A stretch of 64,000 nt of DNA, filler included, from Diploschistes diacapsis (Eukaryota): the NCBI GenBank assembly GCA_023645945.1. It is 13 parts of 13 records of this genome, joined end to end, with 100 filler letters (N's around TTAATTAATTAA, not from the genome) between each part and the next. Parts side by side here need not be neighbours in the genome. Positions count along the whole stretch, not along the records: positions 1 to 22,488 come from JALAIB010000280.1; 12 more parts are not named here. The stretch is one strand, 5' to 3'. Numbering within the stretch: the first letter of the stretch is position 1; each line of letters opens with the position of its first letter. This document shows, piece by piece, positions 1 to 1,118 of the stretch. The notes under the pieces are model-generated. The model was given only the letters and a program-made list of their open reading frames with translations. It was not told where the DNA came from and did no database searches. The position numbers and the translations under genes are program-made.

Positions 1-605
1 GGGGAGGTGCATGGAGCGGAAAGGGTAGGAACAGCATGAGATGGGACTCCTGTGCTTTTTGCTCTTGCTCTTGCTCTTGCTTTTGCCTCCCTCCTCAGGA
101 GGGCGCGCTCGCTTCGAGGTGTATCGGAGACCACAGCGCTACTGCGAATGACTAAACGAGAGGAGCGGTAGGGAGAAACAGAGATAACGGAGCAATAAAA
201 TACGGGCCTATTGTTGCAGCTGCCCGACCGGTTTCTACCAGAGACATACATAAATCTCGTCCAAACCATTGCCCAAATTCCCAGTCCGCCCAGCGCCTAG
301 CCATACACCAAAACATCAAGCCGTCCAGCTAAATAGGCCTCTTTGGATTATATTAAAAAGAAGAAAGAAATTATATGAGAATGTACATGTCGAAGACGCG
401 CGGCCAAGTAGATGGCCGCCCAGTCGCCGGGAACCACTCCCCCCACCAGTCACCGCGCTTGGTTTTTTGTGGGTGCCGTTCTCGGCCTTCGTTCCCCCAC
501 CACAGATCACGATTGCCGTTTTTTCCGGGACACCGAGCCACTCGGGGCGCCTTCGGCTCTCCGCTCGCGTCCTTGTTGCGAGCGAGCGAGGCGAGGAGCA
601 CCGAG

Positions 606-1118
606 CTAGTAAGGGAAGGCTTCCGCAACGGGGCTCCTCTTCTGGATGTGCGTCCCCGGGGCGGAAGGCTCGTCGCCCTTGTGCCCGAGGCGAGGGATGC
701 CGAGCCACTTGCTTACCGCCGGGCCTTCACGCTTTTGGACGTCCGTCGCTTGGCTGGAAGGCTTGTCGCTCTTGTGCCCGGGGCGAGGGATGCCGAGCCA
801 CTTGTCTACAGCTGGACCGTCACGCTTCTGGAGGTGTGTCCCTTGGGACGAGGGCTTGTCGCTCTTGTGCCCGAGAAGGGGGATGCCCAGCCACTTGTCT
901 GCTGCCGGGCCATCACGCTCCTGGAGACCGGCATCCACGTGTATTGGTCCGTCTTTGTTGCCTTTCTGGTGAGGGTTTTCAACGACTTCGTGTGCACCCG
1001 TCTGGTCCGGTTGCGGCTTGGGGACGTCGGGCGAGAGCTCGATTGTGTTGCTAGGAAGGGGAGCGGAGGCGGTGAGGATGCTGAGGCACGAAGCCAGGAT
1101 GAGTATCGACGACCTCAT
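606..1118 (-). CDS. Secreted Kex2-processed repeat protein (KEP)/peptide precursor, 170 aa, three 31-aa repeats
   Basis: ATG at 1118; signal peptide MRSSILILASCLSILTASAP; units (Q[EK]R)-[DE]GPA[AV][DS]K-WLGIP(LL/RP/RL)G-HK[SG]D[KE]PS..-QKR; TAG at 606-608. Confidence 0.85.
   Translation of the reverse strand: MRSSILILASCLSILTASAPLPSNTIELSPDVPKPQPDQTGAHEVVENPHQKGNKDGPIHVDAGLQERDGPAADKWLGIPLLGHKSDKPSSQGTHLQKRDGPAVDKWLGIPRPGHKSDKPSSQATDVQKREGPAVSKWLGIPRLGHKGDEPSAPGTHIQKRSPVAEAFPY
636..921. repeat. Coding tandem repeat, 3 x 93 bp
   Basis: cttgtgcccg...gggatgcc.agccacttg recurs at 678, 771 and 864 (93-bp period). Confidence 0.95.

Follow-up and report, generated by a model that had tools for sequence, protein, structure and literature searches.

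The TAG at 608–606 (minus strand) of the window, i.e. the whole 64,000-nucleotide stretch of Diploschistes diacapsis DNA analysed here, is the stop codon of an orphan gene for a Kex2-processed repeat protein (KEP), a small and probably secreted precursor with an array of repeat units separated by KR sites. It is probable that this array was cut at the Trp codon of its fourth unit, that units 4 and 5 are decaying in the 3′ flank, and that the live array varies among relatives. The feature does exist, and an ordinary process, decay at the edge of a fast-changing array, explains it best. Three live units were followed by two further stretches homologous to them, indels broke the reading frame of these stretches both here and in one relative, and unit numbers differed between relatives.

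The precursor gene and its live repeat array

An ATG at 1118 on the minus strand opened a frame of 170 codons with TAG 608–606 as its stop. The features of this gene were as follows.

606–1118, minus strand: coding frame of the repeat-peptide precursor, 170 codons plus TAG, no intron required
1062–1118, minus strand: likely signal peptide (MRSSILILASCLSILTASA), as read by eye from the sequence
915–1007, minus strand: end of the pro-region, the last 12 bases of which (LQER) resemble the unit end LQKR
822–914, minus strand: unit 1 (DGPAADKWLGIPLLGHKSDKPSSQGTHLQKR), 93 nt, ending in KR
729–821, minus strand: unit 2 (DGPAVDKWLGIPRPGHKSDKPSSQATDVQKR), 93 nt, ending in KR
636–728, minus strand: unit 3 (EGPAVSKWLGIPRLGHKGDEPSAPGTHIQKR), 93 nt, ending in KR
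609–635, minus strand: translated tail SPVAEAFPY, which aligns with indels to the unit head EGPAVSK and so appears to be reworked repeat sequence itself, the head of the fourth unit

Read by eye, the N-terminus consisted of MRSS, a hydrophobic ILILASCLSIL and then TASA. Tandem Repeats Finder reported an array at 639–926 with a period of 93, 3.1 copies, 81% matches and 0 indels. Units 1–3 (93 nt or 31 residues each) were identical to one another at 73–74 of 93 nt. Seventeen of the 31 residue columns were invariant, KWLGIP and GHK among them, although the codons for this invariant core varied among units (CTG/CTC, CCC/CCT), a pattern expected from selection on the peptide. Of the 12 LQER bases ahead of unit 1, 11 were those of the unit end LQKR, and the dibasic site was spoiled; the remainder of 915–1007 was not significantly unit-like (alignment score 21, reached by 114 of 500 shuffles).

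KR sites were located at residues 98–99, 129–130 and 160–161. As their first dipeptide, the units had DG, DG or EG, unit 1 following ER and the others KR. A run of four X-[A/P] dipeptides occurred in the precursor only in the tail (SP-VA-EA-FP-Y), and its chance by composition was ~0.002, a figure judged after the fact. By the route usual for KEPs, the precursor would enter the ER, and a Kex2-like protease would cut after each KR, and a Kex1-like carboxypeptidase may then trim the basic residues left by that cleavage. The peptides so released would be of ~29 residues, built around KWLGIP..GHK.

No Pfam family was found in the precursor. By a word-indexed protein search, one of 841 candidates matched, this being the query itself, and a full scan of 1.84 billion protein representatives gave three matches, the query and two unrelated repeat proteins. 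A metagenome scan returned 244 pattern matches, two of which passed tblastn; both were short low-complexity stretches inside unrelated ORFs and lacked WLG repeats. Antisense and other-frame ORFs across the locus (five) contained no Pfam family, and positions 1–2500 contained no Rfam match. Behind the peptide gene, in its 3′ flank, a short microsatellite of GCAAGA type was present at 60–95.

The gene was compared with the KEP criteria of the pipeline of Le Marquer et al. 2019, as given in the available part of that paper (PMC6339444). The three KR sites divide the protein into 4 fragments. The number of fragments sharing a motif (at least 3 in the pipeline) was at its minimum, the first unit being fused to the pro-region, and the repeats made up 3 × 31 = 93 of 170 residues (55%, the pipeline asking for at least 15%). 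Like the KEPs described in the available parts of PMC6339444 and of Umemura 2020 (PMC7329392), the precursor has a hydrophobic N-terminus, a pro-region and a compact, KR-separated array of near-identical units. Unlike them, it has only three units, the pipeline minimum, its unit 1 is preceded by ER rather than KR, and its units are long (31 residues). The strings WLGIP, KWLG, WLGVP and WLGAP were absent from the text supplements at hand of these two papers (4 files of PMC6339444 and 3 files of PMC7329392).

The stop codon and the worn units behind it

The stop codon and the sequence past it comprised the following features.

606–608, minus strand: the stop codon TAG, which stands opposite the units' TGG (Trp) codon in the alignment
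552–635, minus strand: decayed fourth unit, which matches unit 3 at 55 positions and differs from it by 11 mismatches and 9 gap runs
470–557, minus strand: decayed fifth unit, the core of which (542–527) encodes WLGVP in another frame
507–509, minus strand: TGA, the next in-frame stop past TAG, giving a read-through extension of 32 residues

The minus strand around the stop read AAG AGG AGC CCC GTT GCG GAA GCC TTC CCT TAC TAG CTC GGT GCT CCT CGC CTC. Translation through the TAG gave LGAPRLARSQQGRERRAEGAPSGSVSRKKRQS, just as the preliminary description had set out, and then TGA at 509–507. That description had also placed the stop on the Trp of a fourth repeat, and a semi-global alignment of unit 3 with 635–552 bore this out, the TAG falling exactly on the TGG column. 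The likeness it had pointed to between the codons from TAG onward and those for WLGIPRL amounted to 16 of 21 identical bases, counted from TAG against TGGCTCGGCATCCCTCGCCTC (Trp-Leu-Gly-Ile-Pro-Arg-Leu codons) of unit 3. Seven of the 9 gap runs in this alignment were not multiples of three, and indels that break the frame occurred both before and after the TAG. Another relic of the unit core, AGTGGCTCGGTGTCCC, which the preliminary description had not noted, was located 68 bases further on (542–527), in a frame different from both the coding and the read-through frames. What lies behind the TAG, as we read the sequence, is thus two progressively eroded units and not one hidden intact unit.

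Since TAG 608–606 stands at the former Trp codon of unit 4, a TGG-to-TAG transition that cut off the array would be its likeliest origin. The worn state of units 4 and 5 speaks for an old array edge and against a recent allele, so that the stop itself is probably old. The recent truncation proposed earlier therefore fits as a truncation but probably not as a recent one. With the spoiled LQER site ahead of unit 1 and the relics behind the TAG, the array appears worn at both edges. Unequal crossing-over or slippage would change such an array quickly, and its outer units may escape homogenisation and decay. The sequence past the TAG would then be untranslated 3′ flank holding the remains of units 4 and 5, free to gather indels. 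Against decay, the tail has a clean, Ste13-like run of four dipeptides, which decay alone does not explain, and a dibasic RR survives in the read-through frame, the indels inside the fourth unit cancelling one another.

Relatives of this locus were obtained as contigs from DNA runs (five such runs were found; one relative, X3, came from a rock metagenome). Run X1, a lichen metagenome, may be where the DNA of the window came from, and run X4 contributed no contig. Relative X2 was ~95% identical to the window. Its contig (depth 64.7) covered 209–632 with 18 mismatches and 21 gap letters (424 nt), and had 1-nt deletions at 519, 544, 587 and 592, all within the 96-nt read-through frame; its pieces across 639–913 and 995–1171 had 0 gaps. 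Small indels in X2 therefore affected 4 of 96 extension nt versus 0 of 399 aligned coding nt (Fisher p = 0.0013), and 12 of 397 post-stop nt versus none in coding (p = 0.0002). When the listed X2 differences were applied, the read-through peptide remained the same for four residues (LGAP) and then the frame shifted, a count that could be altered by unlisted insertions, as a further 2 mismatches and 8 inserted letters were counted in this contig without listed positions. Conservation of coding past the stop, which had been proposed as a check, was thus contradicted by X2.

The live array also differed. Past its third unit, X2 carried the intact start of at least one further unit (going back 186, with a side of 69), and the additional 69 nt were identical to unit 2 of the window. 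Absent from X2 were 81 nt (27 codons; 914–994) of the pro-region before unit 1, the LQER site included. Both size differences within the X2 coding region were multiples of three. X3 had 75 other letters in place of 172 nt (584–755) and gave no alignment across the TAG site. A likeness threshold of 80 was used for the joints in X2 and X3, a level at which repeat artefacts can mislead. Repeat copy number differs among these relatives.

That the TAG is a recent, private nonsense allele, the relatives keeping TGG and translating a fourth unit, is unlikely. The change from TGG to TAG is a single transition of the TpG-to-TpA type, and blocks with RIP-like indices exist in the window. These are AT-rich (GC 0.25–0.40), located at about 21–38 kb and 59–64 kb, with TpA/ApT of 1.08 and 1.03 and (CpA+TpG)/(ApC+GpT) of 0.71 and 0.66; the adjoining gene-rich DNA has a GC of ~0.5. 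The X2 codon itself is hidden, since differences private to X2 were listed only at least 34 nt from the contig end and codon 606–608 lies 25 nt from it. Against a private allele, unit 4 is already eroded here (the 7 frame-breaking gap runs) and unit 5 is out of frame, while X2 has the same eroded flank (18 mismatches in 424 nt) with more frame breaks and is also without an intact fourth unit at this position. Nor did the gene-rich first 21.5 kb carry a RIP signature: TpA/ApT was 0.66–0.72 and (CpA+TpG)/(ApC+GpT) ~1.30 in the gene-rich parts, indicating no RIP bias in the gene region. Known RIP targets are longer than the 93-nt units.

It is very unlikely that the post-stop likeness to the units arose by chance in a GC-rich, low-complexity flank. 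The scores were not all decisive on this point. The whole-unit alignment of the fifth unit was not significant alone (96 of 500 shuffles scored as high, and so did 42 of 1000 genomic stretches), and the fourth unit was only moderately unusual in shuffles by a stricter local score, reached by 32 of 2000 of them and by 0 of 3000 genomic stretches. Against chance, the semi-global score of the fourth unit was 31, compared with 20.4 ± 4.2 in dinucleotide shuffles; 10 of the 500 shuffles scored at least as high, as did 2 of 1000 stretches drawn at random from the gene-rich DNA of the window. The fifth core was the sole extra match (at most 2 mismatches) to the 16-base core in the 64-kb window, with 0 matches in 100 shuffles of the 64 kb. 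Both relics also follow immediately after the array, in order and on the same strand.

Possible recoding or splicing across the stop codon

Stage-specific A-to-I editing of UAG to UGG would give the precursor a fourth peptide (YWLGAPRL..., with RR at its end), a reading that we regard as highly improbable. Fungal A-to-I editing, as described in the available part of PMC11156358, prefers U at −1 and hairpin loops, often at UAG; it yields stop-loss and premature-stop-correcting events, the stop-loss ones in hundreds of genes in F. graminearum and N. crassa. The UAG has U at −1, but this holds for every UAG and is without discriminating power. More in favour of editing, the read-through frame is open for 32 codons and keeps its RR and KKR sites, and the tail has the four X-A/X-P dipeptides on which the preliminary description had built a Ste13 argument. 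The dipeptides were indeed present in the tail, but the argument is weakened by the live units, as units 1–3 have D/E-G after KR and so lack the Ste13 signature (taken as in the available part of PMC6339444).

The extension frame was not conserved in X2, with its four 1-nt deletions and its divergence after four residues. In minimum-energy folds of 61 and 101 nt around the TAG, the A was predicted to protrude as a one-nucleotide bulge from a stem instead of lying in a hairpin loop, the latter being a preference of the editing system and not a rule; the folds were no more stable than shuffles (z 0.30 and −0.72). PUK1 and DBF2 are reported cases of stop-loss or premature-stop-correcting editing in Fusarium and Neurospora (PMC4817773, PMC13123824). 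The present stop resembles those of Fusarium and Neurospora in being a UAG whose edited form is Trp, at an ancestral Trp place, and differs from them in the predicted position of its A outside a hairpin loop, in a downstream frame that is not conserved and probably in a lineage not known to edit. According to the available parts of PMC11087585 and PMC11156358, editing needs Tad2-Tad3 with Ame1, an interaction said to have originated in Sordariomycetes, and is otherwise recorded only in Pyronema, having not been found in Aspergillus nidulans or Botrytis cinerea. The record of editing, limited to Sordariomycetes and Pyronema, may also speak against it here. A literature search joining A-to-I editing with Kex2 repeat stops gave only a general review, and one on A-to-I editing in lichen ascomata gave nothing on lichen fungi among the matches listed, judged by title and abstract start.

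The neighbouring genes are visible on one side only of the peptide gene (600 nt from the window edge).

5100–6094, plus strand: gene with a Fung_rhodopsin domain (PF20684), split over two frames, which suggests an intron
7949–8290, plus strand: BIM1-like copper-acquisition domain (PF20238)
10275–10946: SRR1 domain
12283–16611, minus strand: uninterrupted frame of 1442 codons, a large protein with no Pfam family at E ≤ 0.01
18775–20877, plus strand: OPT oligopeptide transporter (PF03169, E 3.8e-155), ~17 kb from the peptide gene

The closest relatives of the OPT transporter were environmental proteins (89% and 83%). Its best named relatives were from Paecilomyces and Penicillium (76%) and from Sarea and Rhizodiscina (75%), i.e. 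Eurotiomycetes, Sarea and a Dothideomycete, versus mostly 58–63% and in one case 72% for Sordariomycetes. These best named relatives, mostly outside Sordariomycetes, argue against editing as a weak pointer only, this being one gene for which no tree was built.

More generally, a recoding of UAG 608–606 to Trp in fruiting bodies, by ADAT-type A-to-I editing or by read-through, so that a stage-only fourth peptide trimmed by Ste13 would be made, has in our view just a slight chance of being correct. If true, it would represent the first peptide signal gated by editing, as well as the first indication that such editing occurs beyond Sordariomycetes and Pezizomycetes, and would link RNA editing to peptide signalling. 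The conditionally unlocked peptide of the preliminary description was not supported, as frame-breaking indels flank the TAG and the extension frame is lost in X2.

Splicing would offer another way past the stop, the TAG ending an alternative 111-nt in-frame intron (716–606) that would join EGPA to LGAPRL.... A donor-like GTAAGC is present at 716 and an acceptor-like CTTACTAG ends at 606, and 111 nt is a multiple of three. The X2 donor, however, is altered at 713 and 712 to the weaker string seen in unit 2, unit 3 would lose its conserved core through the splice, and X2 does not keep the frame past the stop; such an intron is barely credible. The probability of a programmed read-through of a leaky UAG, giving a minor extended isoform, is close to negligible: a C after the stop weakens termination and the base here is C, but C alone favours this reading, the extension frame is not conserved in X2 and no stimulatory structure stands out in the folds.

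Known precursor families and significance of the worn array edge

The precursor resembles alpha-factor (MF-alpha) precursors in its overall build and its expected processing route. In a protein-language-model search, the MF_alpha cluster ranked third (0.82), which is below the 0.9 bar and was taken as a lead only. The precursor differs from MF-alpha in having no Pfam MF_alpha or MF_alpha_N match and no initial X-A/X-P dipeptides in its units. Assignment to the alpha-factor precursors was accordingly rejected (0 Pfam families, and DG/DG/EG instead of a Ste13 spacer). Its core is also without the W-C...G-Q...C pattern, which we take to be that of Pezizomycotina pheromones.

Dikaritin RiPP precursors of the ustiloxin UstA type likewise have a signal peptide and KR-bounded repeated cores. 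Membership of this family was rejected, as no DUF3328/UstYa or tyrosinase gene was found from 609 to 20925, on one side of the gene only; the scan took in 70 frames from stop to stop with 75 or more codons (609–16611) and 11 further frames with 110 or more (~17.7–20.9 kb).

The gene is a further orphan precursor of repeat peptides; its core, KWLGIP..GHK, is new, and it comes from a lineage of lichen- and rock-associated fungi that has been poorly sampled. Between close relatives, units are visibly gained and lost in its array. The main value of the finding is a caution: a stop on a former Trp codon can mimic an editing switch, and here it was most probably left by the decaying edge of a repeat array.
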